Part shown: positions 25,895-46,248 of the stretch, piece by piece
How the letters are laid out: every line of letters begins with the position of its first letter
Position numbering within the stretch: the first letter of the stretch is position 1
Origin: Myxococcales bacterium
GTDB taxonomy: Bacteria; Myxococcota_A; Bradymonadia; REDH01
Direction: 5' to 3'
DNA: 64,000 bases
Assembly: GCA_947496715.1 (NCBI GenBank)
Contig: CANMDT010000001.1
Location: 1,203 to 65,202 of the forward strand
Program-made: the position numbers and the translations under genes
The notes under the pieces: generated by a model
Databases searched by the model: none
The model's input: only the letters and a program-made list of their open reading frames with translations
Told to the model about the DNA's origin: nothing

Positions 25895-25963
25895 CGCGAG
25901 GCTTGGCATCGGCCCGCCCTACGGTTAGCAGATCGGCATCAATCTACCCGCTCGGTGAAGCCC

Positions 25964-28900: not shown

Positions 28901-31762
28901 CGCGACCTCATCAACGCCGATGCGAACGACCTGCTCGACAACTGGTGCGCCGCCCGCGCCACCTACGGCACCGACGGCAAGTTCGGCTCCCCGGGCGAGC
29001 CCAACGCCAGCTGCGCGCCTGTGACCTACAGCATCGACTGGTGCCGGCTGCAGTACCCAACCGCCGCGCAGGTCACCGAGGGCAACGAGGTCACCGTCTA
29101 TGGCCGCCTTTACATCGCCGGCCTCACCACGCTCACCATCGCCATCGACCCCGCAGCAGAGGTCTCGGGGCAGGTCGGCTACGGCCCGCGAGGCAGCAAC
29201 CCCGGCGACCCCGGCTGGTCCTGGTTCGACGCCACACCCAACGCCACCTGGGACAGCCTCTCCTTCTCCGAAACGGCGAACGACGAGTACCAGGCACAGC
29301 TCGCCGCGCCTGCCTTCGGAGCAACCAACAGCTACGATTTCGCCTTCCGCTTCTCAGGCGATTCCCGCGCAACCTGGACCTACTGCGACCGCAACGCAGG
29401 CGCAGGCTCCGACGGCGCGCAAGACGGCTATCAGGCAGCCAATGCGGGCCAGCTTTCGGTACTCTCTGCCGATATCTGCATCCCCAACCCCTGCGCGGCG
29501 CCACCGGCCAACAGCTGCATCAACAGCACCACCCTGCTCACCCAGCTCCCCGCACTCTGCTCGAACAACGGCGCCGGCGGCTTCACCTGCGACTACCCGA
29601 CCAGCATCACCAGCTGCGCCGCGGACGAGGCCTGTGCAGACGGTGCCTGCGTCACCACCATCTTCGCACCCGCAGCACGCGGAGACCTCTACTTTACCGA
29701 AATCATGGCCGCCTCTGGGAGCACGGCTGGCGCCGACGCCGGCGAGTGGTTCGAAATGCGCAACGCCACCGCAGCACCCCTTAACCTCGAAGGCTGCGAG
29801 CTCAGCGATGCCGCCGCCACCACCCACATCATCGCCTCGACGCTGGTCGTCGGGGCGGGCCAGACCGCGCTCTTCGCACGCAACGCAGCAGAGGTTGCTC
29901 TGCTCGGCGCAACCGCGAACTACGAGTACCGCGGCATCGCCCTCAACAACACGGGCGAGTCGCTCTATCTGCGCTGCGGAGGCCTCCTTATCGACGAGGT
30001 GACCATCACGACGGCGCAGACGGTCCCCGGCACCGCCATCCAGCTCTCCCCTGCCGGCATTGGCGCCGATGCGAACGACACGGCGAGCAACTGGTGCCTC
30101 GCCAGCACGCCCATCCCGAGCTCCACACTGCTCGCCACACCCGGCACAGGCAATGCCCTCTGCGGCAACGAGCCGCTCACCATCGGCTGGTGCCGCCTGC
30201 AGTGGCCGCTCGACCCGACGGTTGCCGCCGGCACCTCCTTCACCACCTATGGCCGCCTCTACATCGCCGGCCTCACAGACCGCGACAACGGCAACAATCC
30301 GGACGCCCGTATCACCGCACAAGCGGGATTCGGAGACCCCGGAACGCTGCCCGACACCGCCTCCTGGAGCTGGACCGGCGCGACCCCCGAGCTCACCTAC
30401 CCCGGCGCGAACGCCGAGGCTGCCAATGACGAGTACAGCACCTCGCTCAGCATCCCCGCAGACCGCGCCTCGAACGCCGACTTCGGCTTCCGCTTCTCGG
30501 GCGATGGAGGCACCACCTGGACCTACTGCGATCGCAACGCCGGACCCGACGCAGACGGCGCGGAGGGCGGCTTCCAGCCCGCCAACGCAGGTCACGCTTC
30601 CGTCACGGGCGCCTGCGCTCCCAACCCCTGCCTGAGCGTCCCCGCCGACGGCTGCGCAGACGGCACCACCGTGCGCAACTACAGCCCGACCGGAACCTGC
30701 TCCATCCTCTCGGGGAGCGCGAGCTGCGACTACACCTACCTCGACACCGCCTGTGGCTCAGGCCTTGTCTGCCTCGCCGGCGCCTGTTCCGCACCGCCCC
30801 CGCCCATCGCTGCGGGCGAGATTGTCTTCACCGAACTGCTCGCGCGCGGCTCCCAGATCGCCGACAACGCAGCGGACGACCTCGACGAGTTCATTGAACT
30901 CTACAACACGACCAGCCGCTCGATCGACCTCGCCGGCTGCACGCTGGATGCCACCGGTTCTGCGTCGGGTCTCACCCGCTTCACGCTCCCCGCAGGCACC
31001 GTTCTGCCGGCCGCAAGCTATCGCGCCCTCTTCCGCGCAAGCGCCACCGCCACGCGGCCTCCGGGTAGCCTCTCGGTCGTGGGGCTCTCGCTGCCCGATG
31101 ATGTCACCACGCTCTCGCTCACCTGCGCCGCCACGGTCATCGATGGCGCCACCATCTCGGCATCGCTCGTCTGGGCAGGCGTCGCAGCGCAGCTCGACCC
31201 CACCCGGCTCAACCTCGCCGCCTCCGACAGCGCCGCAGACTGGTGCGCCGCCTCCACCGGACTCGGCTCTCAGCTCCTCGGCACGCCAGGCACAGTAGGT
31301 GGCCCCTGCCCCACCGGCACCATCACAGGCGGCCAGTGGTGCAGGCTCCAATATCCGACAGACATCGATACCACGGCGGGCACCTCCGTCGCACTCTACG
31401 GCCGTATCTACCTTGACGGCATCTCCACCCGCTCCGACGCGGTGAATCCGGACCCGCGCCTCCGCCTGCGCTGGGGCTTCGGCCCCGCAGGATCAGACCC
31501 GGCCGCCGGTGGCTGGACCTGGAAAGCCGCCGTCCCGAACGCCTTCTGGAACGCTGCCACCGCAGGCGAACCCAACAACGATGAGTACTGGGTCGAGAGC
31601 TCCATGCCCGCCGCCTCCGGCTCGCCCTACGCCCACGCCTTCAGCATGAGCCGCGATTCCGGCGCCACCTGGATCTACTGCGACCGCAATGCCGGTGGTG
31701 GCTCCGATGGATACGCCGACGGCTACCAGACCGCGAACGCCGGTTCGCTCCTCGTGCGATGA
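25964..31762 (+). CDS. Giant surface lipoprotein with five lamin-tail-domain (LTD) modules
   Basis: Lipobox LAAC; five (I/F)(S/T)E(L/F/V/I)...E(W/F)xE LTD-like units, each followed by a CRL(Q/V)xP domain, with Cys-rich CxPNPC spacers between modules. Confidence 0.8.
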   Translation: MTTLRSLRIALALPLALAACSDDPARSGGGTDTSSNTQTDTAIIDSGADSTVDSSSGDTSSEDTELQDTAPDGSGDTSIEDTAPDGSGDTDTGDTSPPSTAIVISELMKDPCAVSDGVGEWFEVTNISAAPYDLRGVVISDDGSDSHTITGADPILVTPGATFLLAASGDTAVNGGLTPGYVYSGLLLANGDDAIVLTAADGSLLDAVRYTRTGFPNTACASLSLADASAGSIANDDGAGWCDGSALYNLRDAGTPGATNSACPAPPTVDRCRLVAPTFLEARPGDELTAVASLIAPGLTDRSTATDTNARLRFEVGFGTSDTTPDAAWIWSPIAADTTWAESTEAALDQYAGTFAAPTTGSYDVAARVSLDNGLTWTLCDLAVDGSDGSLDGYQPSNAGKLTVLGICDPNPCITPPATICNLAGSGIISYGAGSCTEVAGRGVCDYPATPTACAPGQVCIDAICTQPPSAPTEAGQVIVSEFMPQSIGGTDNGEWVELHNTTTTAFNIRNCILGEGTTDAHTIARELIVPAGGYRVLARSADPVANHGLTPDYIYSGFSLRNTADSIILTCAGTEIDRRDYTAADVQLGVSRQLDSDHLDGAANDVALNWCESRATYGTAGKFGTPGSANRSCSPDPVAVNWCRLQAPASAVVTEGTSSSWSGRLYIAGLTTLTTGVDPYGSLRAEVGFGPADIDPTSTPTAWSWATALPSPGYNATTAGEPNNDEYVGTLVAPTPQSSRVAFRFSGNGGTSWTYCDRNIGAGADGAENGFALADAGTLLSLSSAICEPNPCTLPLPDYCADGFTAAAYLPTGVCAPLADGTPECTFETTLTNCLTAEQRCSGGQCVDAAPAPSTAGALVFTEVMAASQAGTGDRGEWFEISNTTAEPLDLSRCTITDDGSDIHDIAGPLVIPAGGTLLLARSSNTVENHGITPDYTYAGITLGNTADALNLTCDGLLIDRIAWTAGFSIAGTARQLDRDLINADANDLLDNWCAARATYGTDGKFGSPGEPNASCAPVTYSIDWCRLQYPTAAQVTEGNEVTVYGRLYIAGLTTLTIAIDPAAEVSGQVGYGPRGSNPGDPGWSWFDATPNATWDSLSFSETANDEYQAQLAAPAFGATNSYDFAFRFSGDSRATWTYCDRNAGAGSDGAQDGYQAANAGQLSVLSADICIPNPCAAPPANSCINSTTLLTQLPALCSNNGAGGFTCDYPTSITSCAADEACADGACVTTIFAPAARGDLYFTEIMAASGSTAGADAGEWFEMRNATAAPLNLEGCELSDAAATTHIIASTLVVGAGQTALFARNAAEVALLGATANYEYRGIALNNTGESLYLRCGGLLIDEVTITTAQTVPGTAIQLSPAGIGADANDTASNWCLASTPIPSSTLLATPGTGNALCGNEPLTIGWCRLQWPLDPTVAAGTSFTTYGRLYIAGLTDRDNGNNPDARITAQAGFGDPGTLPDTASWSWTGATPELTYPGANAEAANDEYSTSLSIPADRASNADFGFRFSGDGGTTWTYCDRNAGPDADGAEGGFQPANAGHASVTGACAPNPCLSVPADGCADGTTVRNYSPTGTCSILSGSASCDYTYLDTACGSGLVCLAGACSAPPPPIAAGEIVFTELLARGSQIADNAADDLDEFIELYNTTSRSIDLAGCTLDATGSASGLTRFTLPAGTVLPAASYRALFRASATATRPPGSLSVVGLSLPDDVTTLSLTCAATVIDGATISASLVWAGVAAQLDPTRLNLAASDSAADWCAASTGLGSQLLGTPGTVGGPCPTGTITGGQWCRLQYPTDIDTTAGTSVALYGRIYLDGISTRSDAVNPDPRLRLRWGFGPAGSDPAAGGWTWKAAVPNAFWNAATAGEPNNDEYWVESSMPAASGSPYAHAFSMSRDSGATWIYCDRNAGGGSDGYADGYQTANAGSLLVR

Positions 31763-33527: not shown

Positions 33528-34598
33528 CTACGCGTCTTTGATGAACTCCACGATCTGACGCAGCTCGGGCTCCGCGCGCATCGCTGCATCTATGAGTCGT
33601 GGGTCGAAGGCGGAGCCGGCCTCCAGGCGGAGTTGCGACATTGCCTCCCCCCACGCCAGACGAGCGCGGTAACTCCGCGGCGCCGTCATCGCGTCCAGCG
33701 CATCGGCGATCGCTGCCACGCGGCCCTCCAGCGGAATCGCCTCTCCCTGCAATCCGTGCGGATAGCCCCCACCATCCCATCGCTCGTGGTGAGACCGCGC
33801 CATGCGCACCGCCGAGTCATCGGCGAGCGCACCGCCACGCGCGAGCAGCCTGGCCCCCGCCTCGCAGTGACCGCGCATCCGCGAGACCTCCTCCGCGGTC
33901 CAGACCCCAGCCTCCAACCGGAGCGCACCGACCATCTCGATCATCCCGATGTCGTGCCACGGTGAAGCTCTGCGAATCCCCTCAACCTCCGTCGGTGTGC
34001 AGCCTGCCGACGCAGCGATGGTGACAGCATACCGTGCGAACCGATCGCCATGCATCGAGCCGCTCTCCACGCCGCCCTCTATGCCACTGGCCACCGAGAG
34101 GGCATGCGCCTCGTAGACCGTCCGCTGCGACTCCATCGCGCTGGCCAGCAGCTCCTCCTTGTTGCGCGACGCAAACCACTGGCCCGTACCGGTCGCGCCG
34201 CCGCTCCGAAGCGCCGACCGCAGCCCGCGCATCTCCGACGACTTCCGCATCGCGATCTCCACCGTGCAGATGAGCAGAGAGGGCTCGAACGGTTTGATGA
34301 CCAAGCCGTGGATACCGCCGCGGACAAGCTGTTCCAGCACCTCCAGCTCGCTCTCCGCGGTCATCATCACTACGGGCGGCGCATCGAGATCGTCCCGCAG
34401 CGCAGCCACCAGCACATCGCCGTCTTGCCCCTTCATGCGCAGGTCGCTCACCACAACATCCAGCAGGCTCGATCCGATGAAGGCCAGCGCGCTCGCCACA
34501 TCGTTGCGAACCGTCACCGCGTGACCTCGACGCCGCAACAGCAGCGCCACAAGATCTGCAACCAGCGTGTCATTATCGACGACCAGTATTCTACCCAC
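33528..34598 (-). CDS. Response regulator with HD-GYP cyclic-dinucleotide phosphodiesterase domain (RpfG-like)
   Basis: REC (ILVVDND, SDLRM, KPF) plus HDIG, HHERWDGGGYP, IPLEGR and ADALDAMT..RSY; AAGGGAG RBS before GTG 34598. Confidence 0.85.
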   Translation of the reverse strand: MGRILVVDNDTLVADLVALLLRRRGHAVTVRNDVASALAFIGSSLLDVVVSDLRMKGQDGDVLVAALRDDLDAPPVVMMTAESELEVLEQLVRGGIHGLVIKPFEPSLLICTVEIAMRKSSEMRGLRSALRSGGATGTGQWFASRNKEELLASAMESQRTVYEAHALSVASGIEGGVESGSMHGDRFARYAVTIAASAGCTPTEVEGIRRASPWHDIGMIEMVGALRLEAGVWTAEEVSRMRGHCEAGARLLARGGALADDSAVRMARSHHERWDGGGYPHGLQGEAIPLEGRVAAIADALDAMTAPRSYRARLAWGEAMSQLRLEAGSAFDPRLIDAAMRAEPELRQIVEFIKDA

Positions 34599-34745
34599 GA
34601 CTGCCGCTCCCTTGCTTGCTCGACTGCCTCTCTCGCCTGACGACTCTACCACCAGTTTTCCGATCGGCAAAACGCGGAACGCGCTCGTTGACACCCGAGC
34701 TTTTTTGTCGCAAGTCGGGATCGTTACGATCTTGGGAGCCTCTTC

Positions 34746-35966
34746 ATGCTCGACACCACCTCACTCCACGCATCGATGCGGGATCTCGGTCTCGAACCGG
34801 TGATCTGCCGCCGCGTGCTGATCGTGGACGACGAACCGGCACTCGTCGAGACCCTCGAAGGGCTCCTCGAGGACCACTTCGACGTCATCACCGCCTCCGG
34901 CGGGCGAGACGCACTCCGCCAGCTCGAGGCCGGCGATATCGTCGACGTGATCGTCACAGACCAGCGCATGCCCGGCATGCTCGGTGTCGACTTCCTCGAA
35001 GAGGCCTCTAAGCGGCTCCCCGACACCATCCGCATGGTCGTCACCGCCTACGCCGACGTCGAGCCCATCATCGACGCCATCAACCGCGGAGCCGCCTACC
35101 GCTTTCTCTCCAAGCCCTACAACGCCGATGAGCTCCGCGCCGCCATCTCAGAGGGCATGCAGCTCAAAGCGGCGCGCACCTCGCTCGGCCACCTCATGGC
35201 CGCCCTCGAGACCCGCCGCAACGACATCGAAACCGCGCTCGATGAGCTCCGCGCCGCCCAAGACCAGCTCGTCGCCGCAGAGCGGCTCACCACCTTGGGC
35301 AAGATGACCGCCGGCATCGCGCACGACATCCGCAACCAGCTCGCGGGCATGCGTGTCATGCTCTCGCTGCTGCAAGGCTCCGGCGCAGAGTCTTTCCTCC
35401 ACGAACCCACCAAGCGAGCCGTCGCCTCGCTCGACCACCTCTCCAGACTCGTCAACGAGGCACAGGAATTCGCCAGGGCCGACAGTGGCGCGCTGCAGCG
35501 CCTCCGCGTCGACCCACGCGAACTCATCGCAGACACGCTCGTCCTCTGGCGCGCCGAAAACACCGCCGCCACGGAGCTGGAGGTCGAACTCGACGACAGC
35601 CTTACCTGGCTCACCGTCGATCCACTGCGCGTCACCCAGGGCCTCCTCGTCCTGCTCCGCAACGCAGCGCGCGCCAATCGCGACGATGCCACCGTCGCCC
35701 TCCGTGTTGCCCGCAGCGGGGCCGCGCGTCACGGCGTCCTCTTCTCCGTCATCGACCGCGGCGACGGTATGGACGCAGATACCCTGGCACGCGCCTCCGA
35801 GCCCTTCTTCTCAGCCTTCGACCCGCCATCGCTCGGGCTCGGACTCGAGGTCGCACGACTCGTCGCCACCTCGCATGCCGGCAGCCTCGAAATCACCTCA
35901 TCGCCAGGCCTCGGTACCACCGCCTCGCTCCTGCTCGCCGATGCCGACGGAGGCACACATGGCTAG
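34746..35966 (+). CDS. REC-histidine kinase hybrid (PhcR-like architecture)
   Basis: LIVDDE, TDQRMPG, KP; H-box GIAHDIRNQL; DRGDGMD, PFFS and LGLGL. Confidence 0.85.
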   Translation: MLDTTSLHASMRDLGLEPVICRRVLIVDDEPALVETLEGLLEDHFDVITASGGRDALRQLEAGDIVDVIVTDQRMPGMLGVDFLEEASKRLPDTIRMVVTAYADVEPIIDAINRGAAYRFLSKPYNADELRAAISEGMQLKAARTSLGHLMAALETRRNDIETALDELRAAQDQLVAAERLTTLGKMTAGIAHDIRNQLAGMRVMLSLLQGSGAESFLHEPTKRAVASLDHLSRLVNEAQEFARADSGALQRLRVDPRELIADTLVLWRAENTAATELEVELDDSLTWLTVDPLRVTQGLLVLLRNAARANRDDATVALRVARSGAARHGVLFSVIDRGDGMDADTLARASEPFFSAFDPPSLGLGLEVARLVATSHAGSLEITSSPGLGTTASLLLADADGGTHG

Positions 35967-37134
35967 CAGCTTCGCGTCGCAGTCCGGCCTGCTCGACCGC
36001 TTCCGCGCACCGCTCCGCGTCTGGGTATCACGCGCCCTCTCCGCCCACCTCCCCTCCCTTTCTGCAGCGCTGGGCGACGATGCCGAGGTACACGCGCTGG
36101 TCGATGGCGCGCTGCCGCCCAGCATGGGTCCCGCCGTCCTCCTCGCCGCACCCTCCGACCTCGCCCCCTCCAACGAGCCGGTCCTGCGCGAGCTCGTTCA
36201 GGCCGCCGAGCCCGGACGCCTCGTGCTCTACGGCGGCGAGCAAGACAGAGCCGTCCTCCTCACCGCCATCAACCACTGGCGCGTCTTCCGGCTCATCCCC
36301 TCCATCACAGGGCTCCCGGCCGTCGTCGACGCCATCCAGAAGGCCCACGAGACCACCGAAATGGAGCTCGCGCTCGATTTCGGCATCCGCGACCTCGCCC
36401 AGCAGAACGAACACCTCGGACGCACCCTCGAGCGCCTGCAGCGCACCCGCGGGCAGCTCCTCCACGCAGAGCGGCTCACCACCCTCGGCCGGCTCACCAC
36501 CGGCCTCGGCCAGGCCCTCGACTCCCACCGCGTCGCCACCGACGATCTCTCTGCTGCCAGCAAGCGCATCACGCTCGACGCCGAACTCCTCGATGTCGTC
36601 GAGCGAACCCTCGAAGGCGGTCGCGCACTCGATTCGCTCCTCAGCGATCTCCTCTACTTCGCCGAAAACCGCGAGCGCCCCCTCCACCTCGCACACCACG
36701 ACGCAGACGCCATCGCCGCTGCCGCGCTCAGGCTTGCCGAGGTCGACCCCGTCTCGCGCAAGCGAAACATCTCCATCTCGCTCCGTTCCGGCAGCTTCGT
36801 CTGCGTTGACCGATACGCCATCTACCAGGTCCTCATCAACCTCCTCCGCAACGCCATGCAGGCGACCGAGGACGGCGGCACCATCGAACTCAACGCTCGC
36901 CTCATCGACGGCGAAGTTGTCTTCGAGGTTATCGACAACGGCACTGGTATGTCGCCCGACACCCAGGCCCGCCTCTTCGAACCCTTCTTCACCACCAAAG
37001 GCCGTGACGGACTGGGGCTCGGACTCCGCGTCTCGCGCCTCACAGTCGAGCGCCACGGCGGACGCATGGAGTGCCAGTCCACCCCCGGAACTGGCTCCAC
37101 CTTCCGCCTCTTCCTGCCCATCAGCGCCCACTGA
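35959..37134 (+). CDS. Histidine-kinase-like protein lacking the phospho-His, with degenerate REC N-terminus
   Basis: AERLTTLGRLTTGLGQAL (H-box His replaced by Gln); intact NLLRNA, DNGTGM, PFFTTK and GLGLGL; ATG 35959 overlaps the upstream gene. Confidence 0.75.
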   Translation: MASSFASQSGLLDRFRAPLRVWVSRALSAHLPSLSAALGDDAEVHALVDGALPPSMGPAVLLAAPSDLAPSNEPVLRELVQAAEPGRLVLYGGEQDRAVLLTAINHWRVFRLIPSITGLPAVVDAIQKAHETTEMELALDFGIRDLAQQNEHLGRTLERLQRTRGQLLHAERLTTLGRLTTGLGQALDSHRVATDDLSAASKRITLDAELLDVVERTLEGGRALDSLLSDLLYFAENRERPLHLAHHDADAIAAAALRLAEVDPVSRKRNISISLRSGSFVCVDRYAIYQVLINLLRNAMQATEDGGTIELNARLIDGEVVFEVIDNGTGMSPDTQARLFEPFFTTKGRDGLGLGLRVSRLTVERHGGRMECQSTPGTGSTFRLFLPISAH

Positions 37135-37221
37135 CCAGCGGCCCGCGCCGAACGGTCAAAACTTGGGTTCCTCTGTCCGCATCGCCTAGTCTGCTGACTC
37201 TCACACGCAAGGGGTCTGCAG

Positions 37222-38694
37222 ATGTCCAAGAAGAAGCAATACGACGACCTCTACGGTGGCGTTGGCCGAGCGATGAACTTTCGCGCCAAGCGCGTCCTCG
37301 CCCGAGAGGTAGCCGATCTGGACGGCTTCGACCTCACCGTCGACGGCAAGCCCGCACAGGTCCACGACCTCGCCATGAGCGGTCTCTCCTTTCACACGCC
37401 GCCCGCCGACTCCTCGGCCGTCGGAGATGCCGTCGAACTCCGCGTCTGCTTCGCCGAACAGGTCATCTTCGAGGGCGCTGCACGCGTCGCACGCATCGAA
37501 GACCTCGGCCGCAGCCGGCGCATCGCCGTTCAGCTCCTCACAGGCTTCCTCGACCTGCCGGCCATCCGCCGGGCCGACGAAGATCGCACCCTCCAACTGC
37601 GGCTCGGCACCGGCGCAGACAAGGTCCGAGACAAGGTCCCTGCCGACTTCCGCGAGGTCAACGAGCACGCCGCTTTTTTCCTTGCCCACCACCGCCGCCT
37701 CCTCGACGAGACCGAAAACCGCTACCGCGAGCAGGGTGCCAACGGTCGCGAACTCATCGACAGGCTCGTCCAGCAGGCCTCCGATGCCATGCGACCCGAG
37801 TGGCTCGCCATCTCGAGCCGCGCCGGCGAGATCGCCCGCCCCTACCTTGAAGACACTGAGACCCGCGCCGCGATGAAGGCCTATGTAGAGACCCTCATCA
37901 CTTCGCAGCTCCTCGATGTTCCCATCGTCTCTCGCGCCTATACCAAGCCCCTCGGCTACGCTGGCGACTACCAGGTAATGAACCTCATCTTCCGCAACGC
38001 CTACGAAGGCCGCACGGTCTTCTCACGCGTGATCAACAAGCTCTTCGTCGAGGAGTCCATCGCCGAAGGCGCCCGCGCGAGGCTCGAACTTCTCAAGAAA
38101 ATCTATGCCGACGAGCTCGACCGGCGAACCGCCCTCGGAGCCACCGAGCCCTTCCGGATCATGAGCCTCGGCTGCGGCCCCGCCAAAGAGGTCTCCGACT
38201 TCGCCGACGGCCCCGATGCCTGGCCAACCCCCATCCACTGGACCCTCCTCGACCAGGACGAGCAGGTGCTCTCGCTCGCCTACAGCGAGTCCTTCAAGCG
38301 ACTCACCGCACGCCGTGATGGAAGCTCCGTCCGCTGCCTCTACATGTCCTTCCAGCAGCTCATCGCAGACCCCGAAGGCTCGTTCACCGAAGAGTCCCAC
38401 GACCTCGTCTACGCCTCCGGGCTCTACGACTACCTCCGCCAAAACCGGGCGAGGGAGCTCACCCGTGCCCTCTACGACAAGACCTCTCCTGGCGGTCTCT
38501 GCATCATCGCCAATGGAGCCGCCCCCTCCAAGTCGCTCTGGCCCACAGAGTTCATCCTCGACTGGACACTCATCTACCGCACCGAGGCAGAGATGCGCGA
38601 CATCGCCGCAGCACTCCCCGCTGATGCAGAGGTCGAGTTCACTGCGGAGCGCGAAGGCGCCTTCTCCTTCCTCATCGCCCGCAAGCCTGGCTAG
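37222..38694 (+). CDS. PhcB-like SAM-dependent methyltransferase with PilZ-like N-terminal domain (putative signal synthase)
   Basis: KPLGYAGDY motif, SLGCGPAKE, LLDQDE and YASGLYDYL; N-terminal RVLAR and DLAMSG resemble PilZ motifs. Confidence 0.7.
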   Translation: MSKKKQYDDLYGGVGRAMNFRAKRVLAREVADLDGFDLTVDGKPAQVHDLAMSGLSFHTPPADSSAVGDAVELRVCFAEQVIFEGAARVARIEDLGRSRRIAVQLLTGFLDLPAIRRADEDRTLQLRLGTGADKVRDKVPADFREVNEHAAFFLAHHRRLLDETENRYREQGANGRELIDRLVQQASDAMRPEWLAISSRAGEIARPYLEDTETRAAMKAYVETLITSQLLDVPIVSRAYTKPLGYAGDYQVMNLIFRNAYEGRTVFSRVINKLFVEESIAEGARARLELLKKIYADELDRRTALGATEPFRIMSLGCGPAKEVSDFADGPDAWPTPIHWTLLDQDEQVLSLAYSESFKRLTARRDGSSVRCLYMSFQQLIADPEGSFTEESHDLVYASGLYDYLRQNRARELTRALYDKTSPGGLCIIANGAAPSKSLWPTEFILDWTLIYRTEAEMRDIAAALPADAEVEFTAEREGAFSFLIARKPG

Positions 38695-38697
38695 CCC

Positions 38698-41388
38698 ATG
38701 CCGCAAGCCACCGCCTCCTACCTCGTCGTCCCTGCCCTCGCGGACGCACCCCTCAGTCTCACCGACGAGGAGCAGGAGGAGTTTCGGCGTCAATCACGGG
38801 GCATCACCAAGGCTGCACTCCAGACCGAGGCCTGGCTCGCCTTCTTCCTCATTCCCTGCTTTGGCATCCTCGATTGGGTCGTGCTGCCCGACTACTTCGG
38901 CACCTTCATGCTGCTCAGGCTCGCAGCAAGCCTCGTCTCACTCGCCACCGCCATCGCATGCCGGTCGCAGAGCGACTTCGTGCTCCGACACATCGAAACC
39001 ATCTCCATCGCCTTCCACGTGAGCATCACCTCCGCCATCGCCACCATGTGCTGGTTCGATGGCGGACTCGACTCGCCCTATTACGCTGGAATGGTCCTCG
39101 TCTACCTCGGCTTCGGCCACTTCCAGCTCATGCCGCTGGCCAAGGCCGTTCTTGTCCCGGTCCTCAGCTACATCATCTACATTGCACCCGCACTCTCGGG
39201 AACGACCCACATCGCTTCGCCCGCCTCGGCCATCAACAACCAGTTCTTCCTCGTCTCCTTCGGCTTCGTAACCGTCGTCTCCTGCAACCAGAAACTCCGA
39301 CTCCAGATGCGGCAGTTCCTGACCAACCGCAGCCTCGACCTCGCACGCACCGAGGCCGAGCGCGCCAACGAGAAGCTCAAGCAGCTCGACAGGATGAAGT
39401 CCCAGTTCTTCGCCAACATCACCCACGAGCTACGTACCCCGCTCACCATGATCCTCGCACCCGTCGAGTCAGCGAACGACGGCGCGCGCGGCGTTGTCCC
39501 CGCCCACCTCGCACCCACGCTCAAGGATGTCTGGCGCAACGGACTCAAGCTCCTCAAACTCATCAACGACCTCCTCGACTTCTCCAAACTCGAAGAGGGC
39601 TTCGCACGCCTCCGCATCGACGAAACAGACCTCCCCGTCTTCGTCCGACAGATCACCGGCTACGCAGCAGACATGGCCGCCAGAAAGGAGATCACCCTCT
39701 CCTTCAACATCGCAGCGGACCCCGGCACGATGCACCTCGACCATGAGAAGCTCGAGCGAATCGTCGTCAACCTCGTAGACAACGCCCTCAAGTTCACCCC
39801 CATCGCGGGCTCCGTCGAAGTCACCATCGACTGCTCTCCCACCCACGCCTTTGTCCGCGTCAAAGACAACGGCATCGGCATCGCACCCGAAGCACTCGAC
39901 CGCGTCTTCGAGCGCTTCACACAGGCGGACGGCTCCATCCATCGCCAGTTCGGTGGCACGGGAATCGGACTCGCCTTCGCCCGTGAACTCGCCCGCCTCC
40001 ACGGCGGAGACATCTCCGTTACGAGCGAACCTGGCCACGGCTCCGTCTTCACACTCAGCCTCCGGCGCGGGCGTGACCACTACGACCCCAATCTCATGGA
40101 CCGGCGCAAAAATGCCGCCCCTGCCGGAGCAGCCATCCGCGGCGACGACGCCGGACCCGCAGAGTGGGCACGCCACCTCACCGAGCGTTTCGACTACAAG
40201 TTCCAAGGCATCGACGAGGCCACCGAACGCCGTGCCGTCCCCCGCTCCGACGACGAAGGAAAAACCAGCAAGGTCCTCATCGTCGAAGACAACCCCGACA
40301 TCCTGCGACTCCTTAACCTCGAACTCTCCGTCGAGCACTCCGTCTACGTCGCCAAGGATGGGCGCCAGGGCATCGAACTCGCACTTCGCGAACAGCCTGA
40401 TGTCATCCTCACAGACTTCATGATGCCCGAGGTTGACGGACTCACCCTCATCCGAACCCTGCGCGCCGAGAGCCGCACCGCAGACATCCCCATCATCATG
40501 CTCACCGCCAAAGGCGATGTAGAAGACCGCCTCGCAGCCGCAGAGGCCGGCGCAGACCTCTACCTCTCAAAGCCCTTCAGCACCCGTGAAGTCCGCGCCG
40601 CCGTCAACGCCCAGCTCAAGCGCCGCGGACGCCAGGTCGGCAACATCATCCGCGCACAGGTTCAGAGCCTCGAGCTCATCTCGGCCAGCCTCGCGCACGA
40701 GATCCACAACCCGCTCGCCTACATCAAAAACGCCAACACCATCGTCACCGAAAACATCGAAAAACTGCTGCGCATCATCGCAGATCCGGCCCTCTCCGAC
40801 GAAGAGAAAACCAAGCGTATCGAAGCAATCCGAAACAGGCTCGGCCGCTCCACCACCATCGCCGATCAGGGCGTCGAACGCATCTCCCAGATCGTCGACC
40901 TCGTCCGCCGCTACGCACGCGCCGGCTACAGCCCCGACCCCATCTCCTTCTCCATCGACGACTCCCTCCAAGACGTCCTCAGGCTCATCCACAGGCCGCA
41001 CGACAGCGTCCTACTCCACGCCGAGCTCGAAGCCGGCGATGCACTCATCCGCGTCCGACCCGAAGAGCTCCATCTCGTCTGCCGCAACCTCATCCAGAAC
41101 GCCGTCGAAGCCATCGGCGAACGGGGCGACGTCTGGATTGTCGCCAAACGCGAAAATGACGACATCACCATTGCCATCCGCGACAACGGACCCGGCATCA
41201 ACCGCGAGCACATGGCCCGCATCTTCACCCCCTTCTTCTCCACCAAGGAGACGGGCAAGGGCATGGGAATCGGCCTCTCCATCGCCTTCCAGATCGTCAA
41301 CAATGCCGGCGGCTCCATCGAGGTCGCCAGCACCCTCGGAGAGGGAGCCACCTTCACCGTACGCATCCCGCTGATCCGTCACGCCTAG
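38698..41388 (+). CDS. Membrane sensor hybrid kinase: about 6 TM-HisKA-HATPase-REC-HisKA-HATPase
   Basis: Hydrophobic N-terminus; HELRTPL, GGTGIGL; REC VEDN..TDFMMP..KPF; second H-box AHEIHNPL and GMGIGL. Confidence 0.88.
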   Translation: MPQATASYLVVPALADAPLSLTDEEQEEFRRQSRGITKAALQTEAWLAFFLIPCFGILDWVVLPDYFGTFMLLRLAASLVSLATAIACRSQSDFVLRHIETISIAFHVSITSAIATMCWFDGGLDSPYYAGMVLVYLGFGHFQLMPLAKAVLVPVLSYIIYIAPALSGTTHIASPASAINNQFFLVSFGFVTVVSCNQKLRLQMRQFLTNRSLDLARTEAERANEKLKQLDRMKSQFFANITHELRTPLTMILAPVESANDGARGVVPAHLAPTLKDVWRNGLKLLKLINDLLDFSKLEEGFARLRIDETDLPVFVRQITGYAADMAARKEITLSFNIAADPGTMHLDHEKLERIVVNLVDNALKFTPIAGSVEVTIDCSPTHAFVRVKDNGIGIAPEALDRVFERFTQADGSIHRQFGGTGIGLAFARELARLHGGDISVTSEPGHGSVFTLSLRRGRDHYDPNLMDRRKNAAPAGAAIRGDDAGPAEWARHLTERFDYKFQGIDEATERRAVPRSDDEGKTSKVLIVEDNPDILRLLNLELSVEHSVYVAKDGRQGIELALREQPDVILTDFMMPEVDGLTLIRTLRAESRTADIPIIMLTAKGDVEDRLAAAEAGADLYLSKPFSTREVRAAVNAQLKRRGRQVGNIIRAQVQSLELISASLAHEIHNPLAYIKNANTIVTENIEKLLRIIADPALSDEEKTKRIEAIRNRLGRSTTIADQGVERISQIVDLVRRYARAGYSPDPISFSIDDSLQDVLRLIHRPHDSVLLHAELEAGDALIRVRPEELHLVCRNLIQNAVEAIGERGDVWIVAKRENDDITIAIRDNGPGINREHMARIFTPFFSTKETGKGMGIGLSIAFQIVNNAGGSIEVASTLGEGATFTVRIPLIRHA

Positions 41389-41450: not shown

Positions 41451-43967
41451 ATGCGCAATCTCACCATCCATAAGTTCGGCGGCACAAGCGTAGGCTCGGC
41501 AGAGCGACTCACCGCCGCCGCCGCCATCATCGCCGCCTCGCAGACCCCTGCGCTTGTCGTCACCTCTGCCATGAGCGGAACCACCGACGCCCTCCTGCGC
41601 GCCATCTTCGCCGCCGCCGACGGACGCGCAAATGAAGCCCGCGCCGAGGTGGGAAGCGTCACGCTCCGACACCTCGAAACGCTCACCGCCCTCAACGACG
41701 CCAGCGGTCAAACGGGCACCCGCATCGGCCTCCTCTGCGACGAACTCACCCACCTCATCGAGGCCATCGTCGCCCTTGGTGAAGCGAGCCCCCGCTCCAA
41801 GGACCGCATCGTTTCCGTCGGCGAAAAGCTCGCCGCCGAGCTCCTCACACACGCGCTCCAAAGCGCCGGCCGACAGGCCCTCCCCCTCAGCGCAGACACC
41901 TTCCTCGAAACCGACGCCCGCTTCACCCAGGCGAGCCCCATCCCCCACATCACCGCAGGCCGCATCCGCCGCGCCCTCACGCCCCACCTCGACGCAGGGC
42001 TCACCCCCGTCGTGACCGGCTTCATCGGCTGCTCCGCTGAGGGACACACCACCACGCTCGGACGCGGCGGCAGCGACTTCTCTGCCACCCTCATCGGTGC
42101 CGCGCTCGGAGCCGCCGACATCATCATCTGGACCGATGTCCCCGGCGTCTTCACCGCCAACCCCCGCATCGTCCCCGAAGCCCTCGCCATCCCCCAGCTC
42201 CACCACCGCGAGGCCGCCGAACTCTCCTTCTACGGCGCAAAAGTCCTCCACCAGCGCACCATCCAGCCCGTCAGCGGAACCGACGCCCGCGTCTGGATCA
42301 AGAGCTCCTTCGAGCCCCACCTCGAGGGCACCCTTGTCGACCGCAACCAGCTCATCGGCTCACACCCCGTAAAGGCCATCAGCGCCGTGCCCGGTCAGGC
42401 CATCGTCAACGTCGAGGGCCGCGGCATGGCCGGCGTCCCCGGCATCGCCGCACGCATCTTCGGCGCCCTCGCCCGCCACGAAATCAGCGTTACTCTCATC
42501 TGCCAGTCGAGCTCCGAAGCCTCCATCTGCTTCGCCATCCCAAGCGCTGAAGTCGCCTCCGCCGAGGCTGCGCTCAAGCAGGAGTTCCGCCTCGAACTCG
42601 CCGAAGGCTCTATCGACGACATCACCATCCTCCCCGACTGCGGCATCCTCGCCGTCGTCGGACTCGGCATGGCCCACACGACGGGCGTCGCGGCACGCGT
42701 CATGACCGCGCTCGCCAAGCAGGGCGTCAGCCTCATCGCCATCGCCCAGGCCTCCTCGGAGCTCAACATCTCCGTCGTCATCCGCGAGTCCGAAATCCCC
42801 GCCGCCACCCGCGCCCTCCACCGGGCCTTCGAACTCCACCGCCTCGACACCGGCAAAGACGCCGGCGGCCACCTCGACATCATCCTCTTCGGCGTCGGAA
42901 AAATCGCCCGCGCCCTCGTCGAGAACCTCGACCGCCACGCCCCCACCATCCGCGCTCGCTACGGCCTCATCCCCCGCCTCGTCGCCGTCGGCGACCGCTC
43001 CGGCTACCTCCTGCAGCCCTCCGGTCTCGACGCAACCAGCATCGCCGACCTCCTCCGCATCAAGGCAGCGGGCGGCCCCATCACCGACCTCGCCGGCGCC
43101 ACCGCCTCCACCGACCCACGCGACCTCCTCCGCGCGGCGCTCCGCTACCGCCTCTCCCACCCCACCCTCGTCGACCTCTCCGACGCCGCGGTCGCCGCCG
43201 ACCTCTACGACCTCGCCTTCGCCGAGGGCTGCGACGTCGTCACCGCCAACAAGAAGCCACTGGCCACACCGCCTGAGCGCTACAACGCCATGCGCCAGCT
43301 CCAGCAGACGGGTGCCCGCATCCTCCGCGCAGAGGCCACCGTCGGCGCAGGCCTCCCTGTCATCGACACCCTCGAGATGCTCATCGCCACCGGCGACCGC
43401 ATCCACCGCGTCGACGGCTCCCTCTCCGGAACCCTCGCCTTCCTCATGGAGCGCCTCGAGTCCGGCCAGCCCTTCTCCGAGGCCGTCCGCGACGCCGAGG
43501 CCGGCGGCTACACCGAACCCGACCCGGTCGCCGACCTCACAGGCGACGACGTGGTCCGCAAGGCCATCATCATCTCCCGCATCGGCGGCCTCTCACCGGG
43601 CCACATCGAGATCGAGCAGGAGGGCTGGGTCGACGGCTCCCTCGCAGGCCTCCCCCTCCCCCTCCTCCTCGAACGCCTCAAGGAGTTCGACGCCCCCATC
43701 GCTGCCCGCCTCGCGGCCGCACGCGAACGCGGCGAAGTCATCCGCTTCGTCGCCAGCGTCGAGCCCGGCCGCATCCGCGTCGGCCCGCAGTCGCTCCCCC
43801 TCGACGCCCCGCTCGCCCGCCTCGCCCGCACCGACAACATGATCGTCATCTCCTCCGAGCGCTACGACCAGCGCCCGCTCGTCGTCACCGGTCCCGGCGC
43901 CGGCGTCCAGGTCACCGCCATGGGCGTCCTCAGCGACATCCTCCGCATCATCGCCGAGCGAGGCTGA
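41451..43967 (+). CDS. thrA: Bifunctional aspartokinase/homoserine dehydrogenase
   Basis: HKFGGTSVG, TTLGRGGSD, two ACT domains, VTANKK, EATVGAGLP, GYTEPDP and GPGAG. Confidence 0.92.
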   Translation: MRNLTIHKFGGTSVGSAERLTAAAAIIAASQTPALVVTSAMSGTTDALLRAIFAAADGRANEARAEVGSVTLRHLETLTALNDASGQTGTRIGLLCDELTHLIEAIVALGEASPRSKDRIVSVGEKLAAELLTHALQSAGRQALPLSADTFLETDARFTQASPIPHITAGRIRRALTPHLDAGLTPVVTGFIGCSAEGHTTTLGRGGSDFSATLIGAALGAADIIIWTDVPGVFTANPRIVPEALAIPQLHHREAAELSFYGAKVLHQRTIQPVSGTDARVWIKSSFEPHLEGTLVDRNQLIGSHPVKAISAVPGQAIVNVEGRGMAGVPGIAARIFGALARHEISVTLICQSSSEASICFAIPSAEVASAEAALKQEFRLELAEGSIDDITILPDCGILAVVGLGMAHTTGVAARVMTALAKQGVSLIAIAQASSELNISVVIRESEIPAATRALHRAFELHRLDTGKDAGGHLDIILFGVGKIARALVENLDRHAPTIRARYGLIPRLVAVGDRSGYLLQPSGLDATSIADLLRIKAAGGPITDLAGATASTDPRDLLRAALRYRLSHPTLVDLSDAAVAADLYDLAFAEGCDVVTANKKPLATPPERYNAMRQLQQTGARILRAEATVGAGLPVIDTLEMLIATGDRIHRVDGSLSGTLAFLMERLESGQPFSEAVRDAEAGGYTEPDPVADLTGDDVVRKAIIISRIGGLSPGHIEIEQEGWVDGSLAGLPLPLLLERLKEFDAPIAARLAAARERGEVIRFVASVEPGRIRVGPQSLPLDAPLARLARTDNMIVISSERYDQRPLVVTGPGAGVQVTAMGVLSDILRIIAERG

Positions 43968-43969
43968 CC

Positions 43970-44914
43970 ATGCGCGCCGCCGCCCGCACCTGCTTCGCAC
44001 CCGCGACCGTCTCCAACCTCGGCCCCGGCTTCGACCTCCTCGGCCTCGCCATCGAGGGCATCGGCGATACCGTCACCGCCCGCCTCACCGCAGACCCCGG
44101 CGTCACCGTCGAGCGCATCTTCGGCGACAACGGACGCCTCTCGCTCCTGCCCGCCGAAAACACCGCCGCCATCGCGGCCACCAGCACCCTCCGGCTCGCA
44201 CACCGCACCGAAGGCATCGCCCTCACCATCCACAAGGGCATGCCCCTCGGCTCCGGCCTCGGCTCCTCCGCAGCCAGCGCCGCGGCCGCCGCACTCGCGG
44301 TCAACCTGCTGCTCGGCTCCCCCCTCAAGCGCTCCGAACTCGTCGCAGCCGTCCTCGACGCAGAAGAGGCCGTCTCCGGTCGCCACGCCGACAACGCCGC
44401 CCCCGCCCTCCTCGGCGGCCTCGTCCTCGTCCGCTCCCTCGACCCCATCGACATCCTCCGACTCCCCATCCCCCCAGACCTCTTCGTCGCCGTCGTGACC
44501 CCGGACTGCGAGGTCTCCACCCGCGCCGCGCGCGAGCTCCTGCCCAAGCAGATCCCCCTCCGCGCCCGCACCGAGAACGCAGCCAACATCGCCTCCTTCG
44601 TCGCCGCCTGTTACACCCGCGACCTCGGCCTCCTCGCGGCCTCCATCGTCGACCCTGTCGTCACCACGCCGCGACTCGGCCTCATCCCCGGTGGCGCAGC
44701 CGCCCTCGACGCAGCGCAGGCCGCAGGCGCCCTCGCCAGCTCCATCAGCGGCTCAGGCCCCTCCCTCTTCGCCCTCTGCCACACCCGCGCCACCGCGCAG
44801 CGCGCCGCCGCCGCCATGGTCGCCGCCTTCGCTGCTCACAACCTCGCAGCAAAGCCCGTCATCTCTCCCGCCGACGGCCGCGGCGCGCGCGAAGTGCAGG
44901 ACCCGCTCGCATGA
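43970..44914 (+). CDS. thrB: Homoserine kinase
   Basis: PATVSNLGPGFD, PLGSGLGSSAAS, HADN and SISGSGPS. Confidence 0.93.
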   Translation: MRAAARTCFAPATVSNLGPGFDLLGLAIEGIGDTVTARLTADPGVTVERIFGDNGRLSLLPAENTAAIAATSTLRLAHRTEGIALTIHKGMPLGSGLGSSAASAAAAALAVNLLLGSPLKRSELVAAVLDAEEAVSGRHADNAAPALLGGLVLVRSLDPIDILRLPIPPDLFVAVVTPDCEVSTRAARELLPKQIPLRARTENAANIASFVAACYTRDLGLLAASIVDPVVTTPRLGLIPGGAAALDAAQAAGALASSISGSGPSLFALCHTRATAQRAAAAMVAAFAAHNLAAKPVISPADGRGAREVQDPLA

Positions 44915-46248
44915 ACCAGCCCATCCCCGACGCCCCCTGGCTCCTCCGCTGTGTCGGCTGCGCTGCCACCTACCCCGCCCTCGAGGTCCGCTTCTTCTGT
45001 GGCTGCGGCTCCCTCCTCGAGGTCGAGCACACCCACACCCGCGAACTCCTCGACGAGGCCCTCGCGCCCCACCGCCACGCCCCCAACCGGCAGCCCACCT
45101 CGGTCACAGACCTGTTCGATCTGCGCCGCGCCTCCAACGCTGCGATCGACCGCTCCGGCGTCTGGCGCTTCCGCGAACTCCTCCTCCCCCTCGCCGCCGA
45201 ACACATCGTCACCAAGCCTGAGGGCAACACCAACCTCTACTGCGACGCCCGCCTCTCTGCCTACACTGGCGTCCACAACCTGGTCGTCAAACACGAGGGC
45301 GAAAACCCCACCGGCTCCTTCAAAGACCGCGGCATGACCGCCGGCATCTCCGTCGCCAAGCGGCTCGGCATGAAGGCCGTCGCCTGCGCCTCCACCGGCA
45401 ACACCTCCGCCGCCATGGCCTCCTACGCCGCCCAGGCCGGCATGCGCGCCTTCGTCTTCATCCCCGCCGGCAAAATCGCCTTCGGAAAGCTGGCCCAAGC
45501 CCTCGCCTACGGCGCAACCACCCTCCAGATCGACGGCGACTTCGACGCCGCCATGGAGCTCGTCCAGCAGGTCTGCACCAGCGAGGGTATCTACCTCCTC
45601 AACTCCGCCAACCCCTTCCGCATCGAGGGCCAGAAGGCCATCGGCTTCGAGCTCCTCCAAGACCTCGGCTGGACCGTCCCCGACTGGGTCATCCTCCCCG
45701 GCGGAAACCTCGGCAACGCCAGCGCACTCTTCAAGGGCCTCTCCCAACTCAAGGCGCTCGGCCTCATCAGCCGGCTGCCCCGCATCGCGGTCATCCAGGC
45801 CGAAGGCGCCAGCCCCCTCGCCCGCTCCTTCCTCAACAAGACCCCCTACGCGCCCCAACCCAACGCCAATACCATCGCCACCGCCATCCGCATCGGCGCA
45901 CCCGTCTCCATCCAGAAGTGCCAGCGCGCCATCGCAGAGACCGACGGCTGGGCCGACCTCGTCACCGACGCAGAAATCCTCGACGCCAAGGCCGTCCTCG
46001 ACGCCTCCGGCATCGGCGCAGAACCTGCCTCCTGCGCCTCCATCGCCGGACTCCGCAAGCTCGTCGCAAAGGGCATCATCAAGCCCGGAGAGTCGGTCGC
46101 TGCCATCCTCACAGGACACCTCCTCAAAGACCCCGACGCAGTCGTCGACTACCACGCTGCAGAACCCTCCCCAGACCGCCCCAGAGCCAACCGCCCCATC
46201 CGCGTCCAAGGCTCCCTCGACGAGGTCATCGCACTCCTCCGCAAATAG
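44911..46248 (+). CDS. thrC: Threonine synthase
   Basis: EGENPTGSFKDRG, CASTGNT and PGGNLGN; follows thrB with ATGA overlap. Confidence 0.92.
   Translation: MNQPIPDAPWLLRCVGCAATYPALEVRFFCGCGSLLEVEHTHTRELLDEALAPHRHAPNRQPTSVTDLFDLRRASNAAIDRSGVWRFRELLLPLAAEHIVTKPEGNTNLYCDARLSAYTGVHNLVVKHEGENPTGSFKDRGMTAGISVAKRLGMKAVACASTGNTSAAMASYAAQAGMRAFVFIPAGKIAFGKLAQALAYGATTLQIDGDFDAAMELVQQVCTSEGIYLLNSANPFRIEGQKAIGFELLQDLGWTVPDWVILPGGNLGNASALFKGLSQLKALGLISRLPRIAVIQAEGASPLARSFLNKTPYAPQPNANTIATAIRIGAPVSIQKCQRAIAETDGWADLVTDAEILDAKAVLDASGIGAEPASCASIAGLRKLVAKGIIKPGESVAAILTGHLLKDPDAVVDYHAAEPSPDRPRANRPIRVQGSLDEVIALLRK

Follow-up and report, generated by a model that had tools for sequence, protein, structure and literature searches.

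The 64,000-nucleotide stretch of contig CANMDT010000001.1 from a Myxococcales bacterium that we analysed (the window) contains, at positions 33528–41388, a five-gene locus whose central pair encodes a 490-residue methyltransferase homologous to PhcB and an 896-residue hybrid sensor kinase whose membrane domain is homologous to that of PhcS, the synthase and sensor of the phc operon of Ralstonia. By its sequence the locus is a phc-type synthase-receptor module in a different phylum, and a variant one, in that the presumed synthase bears a PilZ domain and the sensor is fused to a PhcR-like protein. The linkage of the two genes is conserved across the host phylum. We favour, with moderate confidence, the reading that the core of the locus is a phc-type circuit that would make and sense its own signal. 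The other three genes encode a receiver (REC)-kinase, a copy of it lacking the phospho-acceptor histidine (the His-less kinase) and a divergent REC-HD-GYP regulator.

Searched against Pfam and NCBIfam, the 490-residue protein itself matches no methyltransferase family and no NCBIfam family, its one match being a sub-threshold one to PilZ, and a sequence search against Protein Data Bank (PDB) chains gave noise (E 0.76) and returned no solved PhcB structure. Its assignment as a methyltransferase comes from its relatives, from profile comparison and from its predicted fold. Indeed, Methyltransf_25 (Pfam) is matched in 12/22 close relatives. Of 8000 candidates scored in a large protein search, 155 proved to be relatives; about 25 of these are full-length at 34–62% identity, with a long tail at 22–35%. 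Two of the full-length ones bear the names "PilZ domain-containing protein [Myxococcota bacterium]" and "class I SAM-dependent methyltransferase" (SAM, S-adenosylmethionine), and 28 of the 120 relatives listed carry the JGI name PhcB, which is presumably KEGG K19620. A plasmid search gave no full-length relative (0/143 records cover 80% of the query). It did yield a Paraburkholderia graminis locus of phcBSRQ type, in which the methyltransferase gene is followed 2 nucleotides (nt) on by a kinase gene and by genes for two receiver proteins. With this Paraburkholderia methyltransferase as query, species genomes gave 328 relatives, the best 80 of which are from Paraburkholderia, Cupriavidus, Janthinobacterium, Pseudoduganella, a few related Burkholderiales and Ralstonia pickettii; the last has four open reading frames (ORFs) with the lengths and order expected of phcB, phcS, phcR and phcQ. 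Homologous proteins in Ralstonia, Cupriavidus and Paraburkholderia are also mentioned in the accessible text of PMC6989110, and PhcB is described as the synthase of 3-hydroxymyristic acid methyl ester (3-OH MAME) in that of PMC11960443.

The window protein is 32% identical to the Paraburkholderia protein over 266 residues (E 1e-36) and 25% identical to that of the R. pickettii operon over 404 residues (BLASTP, E 3e-35). Furthermore, an hhalign comparison of its 22 close relatives with 13 Burkholderiales PhcB sequences gave a probability of 100% (E 1.2e-40) over 381 columns, covering residues 71–468; the first 70 residues fall outside this alignment, the barrel discussed below excepted (probability 80%). 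Conservation among 111 relatives reaches 90% or more at 33 columns, and at every one of these the Burkholderiales PhcB keep the residue of the window protein, in 13/13 sequences at 31 columns and in 92% and 77% at the other two. These columns include K242-P-L-G-Y-A-G-D-Y250, R287, GCGPA-E323, D344, G400-L-x-D-Y404, G425, W448 and R453. An earlier note on this DNA had proposed that 37222..38694 is homologous to PhcB and had singled out KPLGYAGDY as PhcB-like; the homology is indeed near full-length, and KPLGYAGDY (residues 242–250) is invariant in 13/13 Burkholderiales PhcB. In a FastTree phylogeny of 124 sequences, midpoint-rooted and built from sequences chosen by similarity to the query, the window protein belongs to a clade of 23–29 members (support 0.999/0.947), 86–91% of which have PilZ motifs, and the PhcB clade (support 1.0) sits apart from it among motif-less sequences. 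On these comparisons the protein is a remote, near-full-length homologue of PhcB, and since its clade is separate and well supported it is not an orthologue.

The AlphaFold2 model of the full protein (mean predicted local distance difference test score, pLDDT, 93.4; predicted template modelling score 0.87) comprises a barrel (residues 36–105), a helical domain (112–304) and a Rossmann fold (311–487). In a Foldseek search with this model, the best solved matches were 3ocj and SAM methyltransferases of small molecules (SgvM, SibL and ChlM). PDB 3ocj, an uncharacterised protein of Bordetella parapertussis, is the best solved match to the helical and Rossmann part (E 6.7e-11, 347 columns), but it differs from the window enzyme in having only 17% identity to it, no PilZ domain and no known function.

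The gene for the hybrid kinase begins 3 nt past the methyltransferase stop. The N-terminal 200 residues of the kinase are hydrophobic, and Pfam gave no match to the first 234 even at E 10; the PhcS-like protein of Paraburkholderia has a weak MASE8 match only (E 0.0044). When 37 kinase N-termini from the phylum were compared with 13 PhcS N-termini by hhalign, the probability was 99.7% (E 2.3e-25, 204 columns), as against 0.6% (E 0.088) for a control with the PhcS columns reversed, which bears out the PhcS-like membrane sensor postulated in the earlier note. The window sensor and PhcS have a signature in common, LD(W/Y)-V-P, R and G-S-YYAG, and the BLASTP alignment of the kinase with the Paraburkholderia PhcS-like protein begins at residue 58, within the membrane domain. 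At the other end, residues 526–895 align end to end with R. pickettii PhcR (25% identity, E 9e-19). Because the N-terminus matches PhcS and the C-terminal half matches PhcR, the kinase is, as far as sequence can tell, built like PhcS fused to a PhcR-like protein. The separate REC-kinase, already likened to PhcR in the earlier note, has the PhcR architecture and is 25.5% identical to R. pickettii PhcR over 380 residues (BLASTP, E 1.4e-21), and the His-less kinase is its paralogue (BLASTP, 28% over 291 residues, E 6e-24). The alignments thus place in the locus a free PhcR-like protein and a His-less copy of the same as well.

Of 401 genomes sampled from the phylum, 89 contain a homologue of the enzyme (E <= 1e-10), the counts being 72 of the 339 of good quality and 58 of 254 genera. 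From the 42 best genome matches, we fetched 40 loci with up to 8 kilobases (kb) on each side, leaving out G279 (contig under 3 kb) and G234. The hybrid kinase adjoins the methyltransferase on the same strand in 32 of the 40 (in three of them upstream), lies elsewhere in the locus in five and was not found in three, two of whose contigs end within 500 nt. The hybrid has its two-kinase form in 32/40 loci, and a separate REC-kinase gene is found in 27/40. Enzyme identity in the linked loci is 27–64%. Because the kinase adjoins in 32/40 loci, the arrangement is not a matter of chance, and the synthase-sensor linkage that had been put forward for the window proves conserved when synteny is followed across the phylum. 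One further genus of the family (L037) repeats the full five-gene order, missing histidine included, and in Burkholderiales phcS adjoins phcB in 79/80 loci. In three loci (L034–L036, from G377, G282 and G227) the order is reversed, the methyltransferase having the hybrid kinase immediately before it and the REC-kinase immediately after. As had been remarked before, no PhcA-type LysR gene accompanies the locus: LysR_substrate has no match on the window's contig and three in the whole genome (93% complete), all on other contigs. This absence is weak evidence, since phcA is not known to be adjacent to the phc operon in Ralstonia either. A separate observation concerns a mobile element, a plasmid of Pseudanabaena sp. 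PCC 7367 (L003, 6983–9213), that encodes a short form without PilZ. This is a 280-residue methyltransferase matching only the C-terminal 57% of the query (33.6% identity, E 1e-42); its gene is arranged tail-to-tail with those of a HAMP sensor kinase and a response regulator and has a Tn3 transposase gene as a neighbour.

The N-terminal part of the enzyme has the fold of a PilZ domain. A separate model of residues 1–128 (pLDDT 86.1) contains the six-strand barrel with following helix of that fold, and in a Foldseek search the first 35 ranks listed are taken up almost entirely by PilZ proteins, many of them bound to cyclic dimeric guanosine monophosphate (c-di-GMP); the matches comprise VCA0042, MotI, YcgR, BcsA, Alg44, PlzA, MapZ and MrkH (E from 6.5e-4, TM-score 0.44–0.57). 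The domain carries an Arg loop (R16, R21, R24 and R28) with the RxxxR motif as R24-V-L-A-R28 at 37291–37305, and D49-L-A-M-S-G54 at 37366–37383, in which Ala stands where the canonical PilZ motif DxSxxG has Ser. Pfam PilZ matches 14/22 close relatives (E <= 0.01). All 31 of the phylum N-termini compared have R21, R24 and G54; D49 is found in 28 (Asn in the other three) and S51 in 27. Residues 1–20 are disordered in both the full-length and the 1–128 model. A profile of the N-terminal domain searched against 1.84 billion proteins gave 580 representatives, 276 of them at E <= 1e-10; among the best 150, 87 are at least 440 residues long and 87/87 of these have a PhcB-like C-terminal part, the 63 shorter sequences probably being fragments. 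The genome has 10 GGDEF matches and should therefore make c-di-GMP.

The barrel of Burkholderiales PhcB aligns with that of the window protein (probability 80%, E 1.4e-5; reversed control 0.1%). The earlier note had taken the N-terminal pattern Y..L.G..GR...FR..R to be PhcB-like as well, but this attribution fails: the pattern is absent from the Burkholderiales PhcB consensus, which starts MYSQTQIDPVVSFRNSQGE, and corresponds to the PilZ ligand loop. For the window copy, control of the enzyme by c-di-GMP is plausible, with the chances for and against it about evenly balanced. In R. solanacearum, the accessible part of PMC6989110 reports that the substitution R22C in PhcB lowers signal synthesis. 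In an alignment with the Ralstonia pickettii locus (L135, 6001–10884), PhcB Arg22 maps to the first strand of the PilZ-like barrel, and the barrel should thus matter for PhcB activity even where the ligand motifs are gone.

In the circuit that we favour, the 490-residue enzyme would use SAM to methylate a small, probably lipid-like carboxylate on the catalytic scaffold of PhcB, which in Ralstonia makes methyl 3-hydroxymyristate/palmitate. Since the enzyme retains PhcB's entire set of conserved residues and a PhcS-family domain embedded in the membrane serves as the sensor, the product is likely the methyl ester of a lipid-like acid. Presumably released from the cell, it would be detected by the six-helix, PhcS-type membrane domain of the hybrid kinase, and this kinase would autophosphorylate at His243 and pass the phosphate to its own receiver at Asp572, controlling the fused PhcR-like kinase module. 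Likely partners further down would be the separate REC-kinase together with its His-less paralogue, and the divergently encoded REC-HD-GYP protein, with an output that would do without a PhcA-type LysR regulator. As the PilZ domain has been kept with a largely intact c-di-GMP-binding signature, signal synthesis would probably be tuned by intracellular c-di-GMP through it. Several points weigh against this reading. Identity to PhcB is only 25–32% and the clade is separate, so the same substrate as that of PhcB cannot be assumed, and the PhcB references used here, the R. pickettii operon protein and the Paraburkholderia and Cupriavidus homologues, stand in for the characterised R. solanacearum protein. 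In L033, from the nearest other genus (64% identity), the REC-kinase genes are missing upstream of the module. A REC-HD-GYP gene, moreover, stands beside the module in only 3/40 loci, so that a c-di-GMP loop through it would be local to the family at best. On the favourable side, contigs of four freshwater RNA libraries from three studies cover parts of all five genes, several being identical to the window, which hints weakly at activity of the locus in nature; these contigs may come from carried-over DNA and give no strand, operon structure or transcript boundaries. A fuller version, in which c-di-GMP directly gates synthesis of a diffusible methyl-ester signal, the receptor cascade ends at the REC-HD-GYP phosphodiesterase and closes the loop, and the PilZ form is ancestral with ligand binding lost in Ralstonia-type PhcB, seems to us rather unlikely.

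The strongest alternative leaves the phc-type module as it is and denies it the second messenger: the PilZ-like barrel may be merely structural or regulatory and no longer bind c-di-GMP, as apparently in Burkholderiales PhcB. We give this a substantial chance, somewhat short of even. It fits the Ala in the DxAxxG motif of the window copy, a Pfam PilZ score below the gathering threshold of 22.5 bits (17.4 bits for the whole protein, 20 bits for the domain alone, E 9.1e-4), the presence of R28, the second Arg of RxxxR, in only 14/31 of the phylum N-termini, and the PhcB barrel itself, which has N-x-Q-x-x-S at the PilZ motif and no Arg loop, with Pfam PilZ matching 0/13 Burkholderiales PhcB. However, the invariance of R21, R24 and G54, the Asp or Asn found at position 49 in every sequence and the disordered loop at residues 1–20, as in apo PilZ domains, count against it, such conservation in an N-terminal loop being an argument for a ligand.

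Other explanations concern what the enzyme makes and for whom. Its methylated metabolite might stay in the producing cell or its membrane and be read there by the PhcS-type domain, in an internal circuit of metabolic or envelope state with no bearing on cell density. Nearly all of the sensor lies within the membrane, its loops being very short, as expected for a ligand in the lipid phase, the PilZ domain ties the enzyme to the internal state, and no export gene is seen in the locus; but fatty-acid methyl esters need no transporter to cross membranes. In the only relatives that have been studied, moreover, the product is secreted and acts between cells, according to the accessible parts of PMC11960443 and PMC6989110, and we regard an internal circuit as unlikely. 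That the methyltransferase acts on a protein, for example the neighbouring kinases, in CheR-like adaptation seems very improbable: weak Pfam CheR matches occur in 3/22 relatives and 3/13 PhcB, the enzyme is always beside kinases, and MapZ, a PilZ protein whose structures 5xly and 5y4r are among the PilZ fold matches, controls CheR1, yet the best full-length fold matches are small-molecule enzymes and not CheR, and the whole conserved residue set is common to the 3-OH MAME synthase PhcB. The high-G+C genomes of the phylum are kinase-rich, with many kinase matches per locus, which could bring unrelated two-component genes next to a methyltransferase by accident. We consider the likelihood of this negligible, as it is refuted by the count of adjoining kinases at such divergent enzyme identities, and the two genes are only 3 nt apart and paired in the same way in the Burkholderiales.

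The closest known system is the PhcB-PhcS-PhcR(-PhcQ) operon of Ralstonia, Cupriavidus and Paraburkholderia, with which the locus shares a homologous enzyme and sensor domain, a synthase gene directly before the sensor gene and a REC-kinase of PhcR architecture. It differs in that the window enzyme keeps the PilZ ligand motifs that PhcB has lost, that the sensor forms one protein with a receiver and a second kinase, that there is an extra His-less kinase, and in its host phylum; no PhcQ-type protein was identified beyond receiver similarity, and the contig has no PhcA-type LysR gene. In the accessible text of PMC6989110, PMC11960443 and PMC10576176, phc signalling is treated as a feature of Ralstonia and close relatives, and the "pilZ" that appears in that of PMC10576176 is a pilus gene. 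Our literature search, with supplements and subscription journals outside its scope, found no description of a PilZ-PhcB fusion or of a myxobacterial PhcB, and the accessible part of a PilZ census preprint has many PilZ fusions, a PilZ-PhcB-like one not being among those listed. In Pseudomonas aeruginosa, the pair MapZ-CheR1 (PDB 5xly, 5y4r; interaction described in the available text of bioRxiv 10.1101/814665) resembles the window enzyme in that a c-di-GMP-loaded PilZ protein controls a SAM-dependent methyltransferase, but MapZ acts in trans on a chemotaxis protein methyltransferase, whereas the PilZ domain of the window is fused in cis to a PhcB-type enzyme. BcsA and Alg44, both among the fold matches, likewise couple PilZ to biosynthetic machinery with a product that leaves the cell; unlike the window enzyme they make polysaccharides, and their PilZ domain is C-terminal or stand-alone and reaches the Pfam threshold. 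Vibrio CqsA-CqsS also places an autoinducer synthase gene next to that of a hybrid kinase which has several membrane helices and responds to a lipid-like signal, but by an unrelated chemistry, acyl transfer dependent on pyridoxal phosphate, and with a sensor of an unrelated family.

The G+C content of the window is about 67%, and long spurious ORFs are common in it for that reason. Five genes hold up on inspection across the locus, and the four packed, co-oriented genes and divergent REC-HD-GYP gene of the earlier note are all present at the span it gave (Table 1). The REC-HD-GYP protein, whose GTG start is uncertain, has intact HHERWDGGGYP and HDIG motifs and a receiver Asp in the context VVVSDLRM, and is probably a c-di-GMP phosphodiesterase. 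The His-less kinase had also been recognised correctly: its H-box reads GLGQALD, with Gln at the His position (HAERLTTLGRLTTGLGQALDSHR), and its N-terminus is degenerate and receiver-like. Its gene, which we place at 35959–37134 within the frame of a long ORF (35353–37134), starts at an ATG overlapping the stop of the REC-kinase gene (ATGGCTAG). An ORF at 36080–37189 that overlaps this gene was rejected as an off-frame, Ser/Pro/Ala-rich artefact of high G+C. A promoter scan gave 0 sigma-70-like sites, and terminator-like sites number 6 against 3.7 expected, none of them convincing.

Table 1. Genes of the locus and domains of its two central proteins, with window coordinates (aa, amino acids; DHp, dimerization and histidine phosphotransfer domain).
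Feature	Position	Strand	Basis or content
REC + HD-GYP response regulator, 388 aa, divergently transcribed	33528..34694	-	Pfam Response_reg 2.7e-18, HD_5 7.4e-25, HD 2.6e-11
REC-HisKA-HATPase protein, 406 aa, PhcR-like architecture	34746..35966	+	Pfam; H-box GIAHDIRNQL intact
His-less kinase, 391 aa	35959..37134	+	HATPase intact (9.8e-26); DHp with Gln for phospho-acceptor His
PilZ-fused PhcB-like class I SAM methyltransferase, 490 aa, presumed signal synthase	37222..38694	+	
PilZ domain of methyltransferase, residues ~16-110	37267..37551	+	Arg-rich flexible loop and six-strand barrel
Helical domain of methyltransferase, residues 112-304	37555..38133	+	Carries invariant KPLGYAGDY (242-250, 37945-37971) and R287
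Rossmann-fold SAM-binding domain of methyltransferase, residues 311-487	38152..38682	+	LGCGPAKE, D344, GLYDY (D403), R453
Hybrid sensor kinase, 896 aa	38698..41388	+	Membrane sensor, HisKA-HATPase, REC, second DHp-HATPase (Pfam, sequence)
Membrane sensor domain of hybrid kinase, residues ~20-205, ~6 hydrophobic segments	38755..39312	+	PhcS-sensor homologue (hhalign; hydropathy)

Of the four RNA libraries, one (X1) has contigs about 96% identical to the window at 34974–36297 and 39199–40925, in the genes for the REC-kinase, the His-less kinase and the hybrid kinase, and these belong to another strain, or to a sister species, that has the same genes; the other three libraries gave pieces identical to the window. 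Bins of the libraries that lack cover are uninformative, and depths cannot rank genes. Following the hybrid kinase gene after a gap of 62 nt, positions 41451–46248 (+) hold genes for an aspartokinase fused to homoserine dehydrogenase and bearing two ACT domains, for a GHMP-type kinase and for a PALP enzyme; this threonine-pathway run, thrA-thrB-thrC-like, is housekeeping and lies outside the module in other loci. An SRP54/Ffh gene is found at 46562–48256 (+), and the 733-residue minus-strand ORF overlapping it matches no family and is probably spurious. Upstream of the locus, a 1935-residue ORF at 25955–31762 (+) has five Lamin Tail Domain repeats (Pfam LTD, 2.4e-65) and probably encodes a giant protein that is secreted or located at the surface. 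Over 24000–64000, GC skew stays below zero throughout (-0.05 to -0.32 in 2-kb steps), and the plus strand carries most of the long ORFs there.

If the enzyme does make a released signal, many uncultured bacteria of soil and freshwater would have a cell-to-cell language that has gone unrecognised. If its PilZ domain binds c-di-GMP, there would be a direct link from the main lifestyle messenger of bacteria to the production of an autoinducer, and, should the loop be closed through the REC-HD-GYP phosphodiesterase, the extracellular signal and the second messenger would regulate each other.

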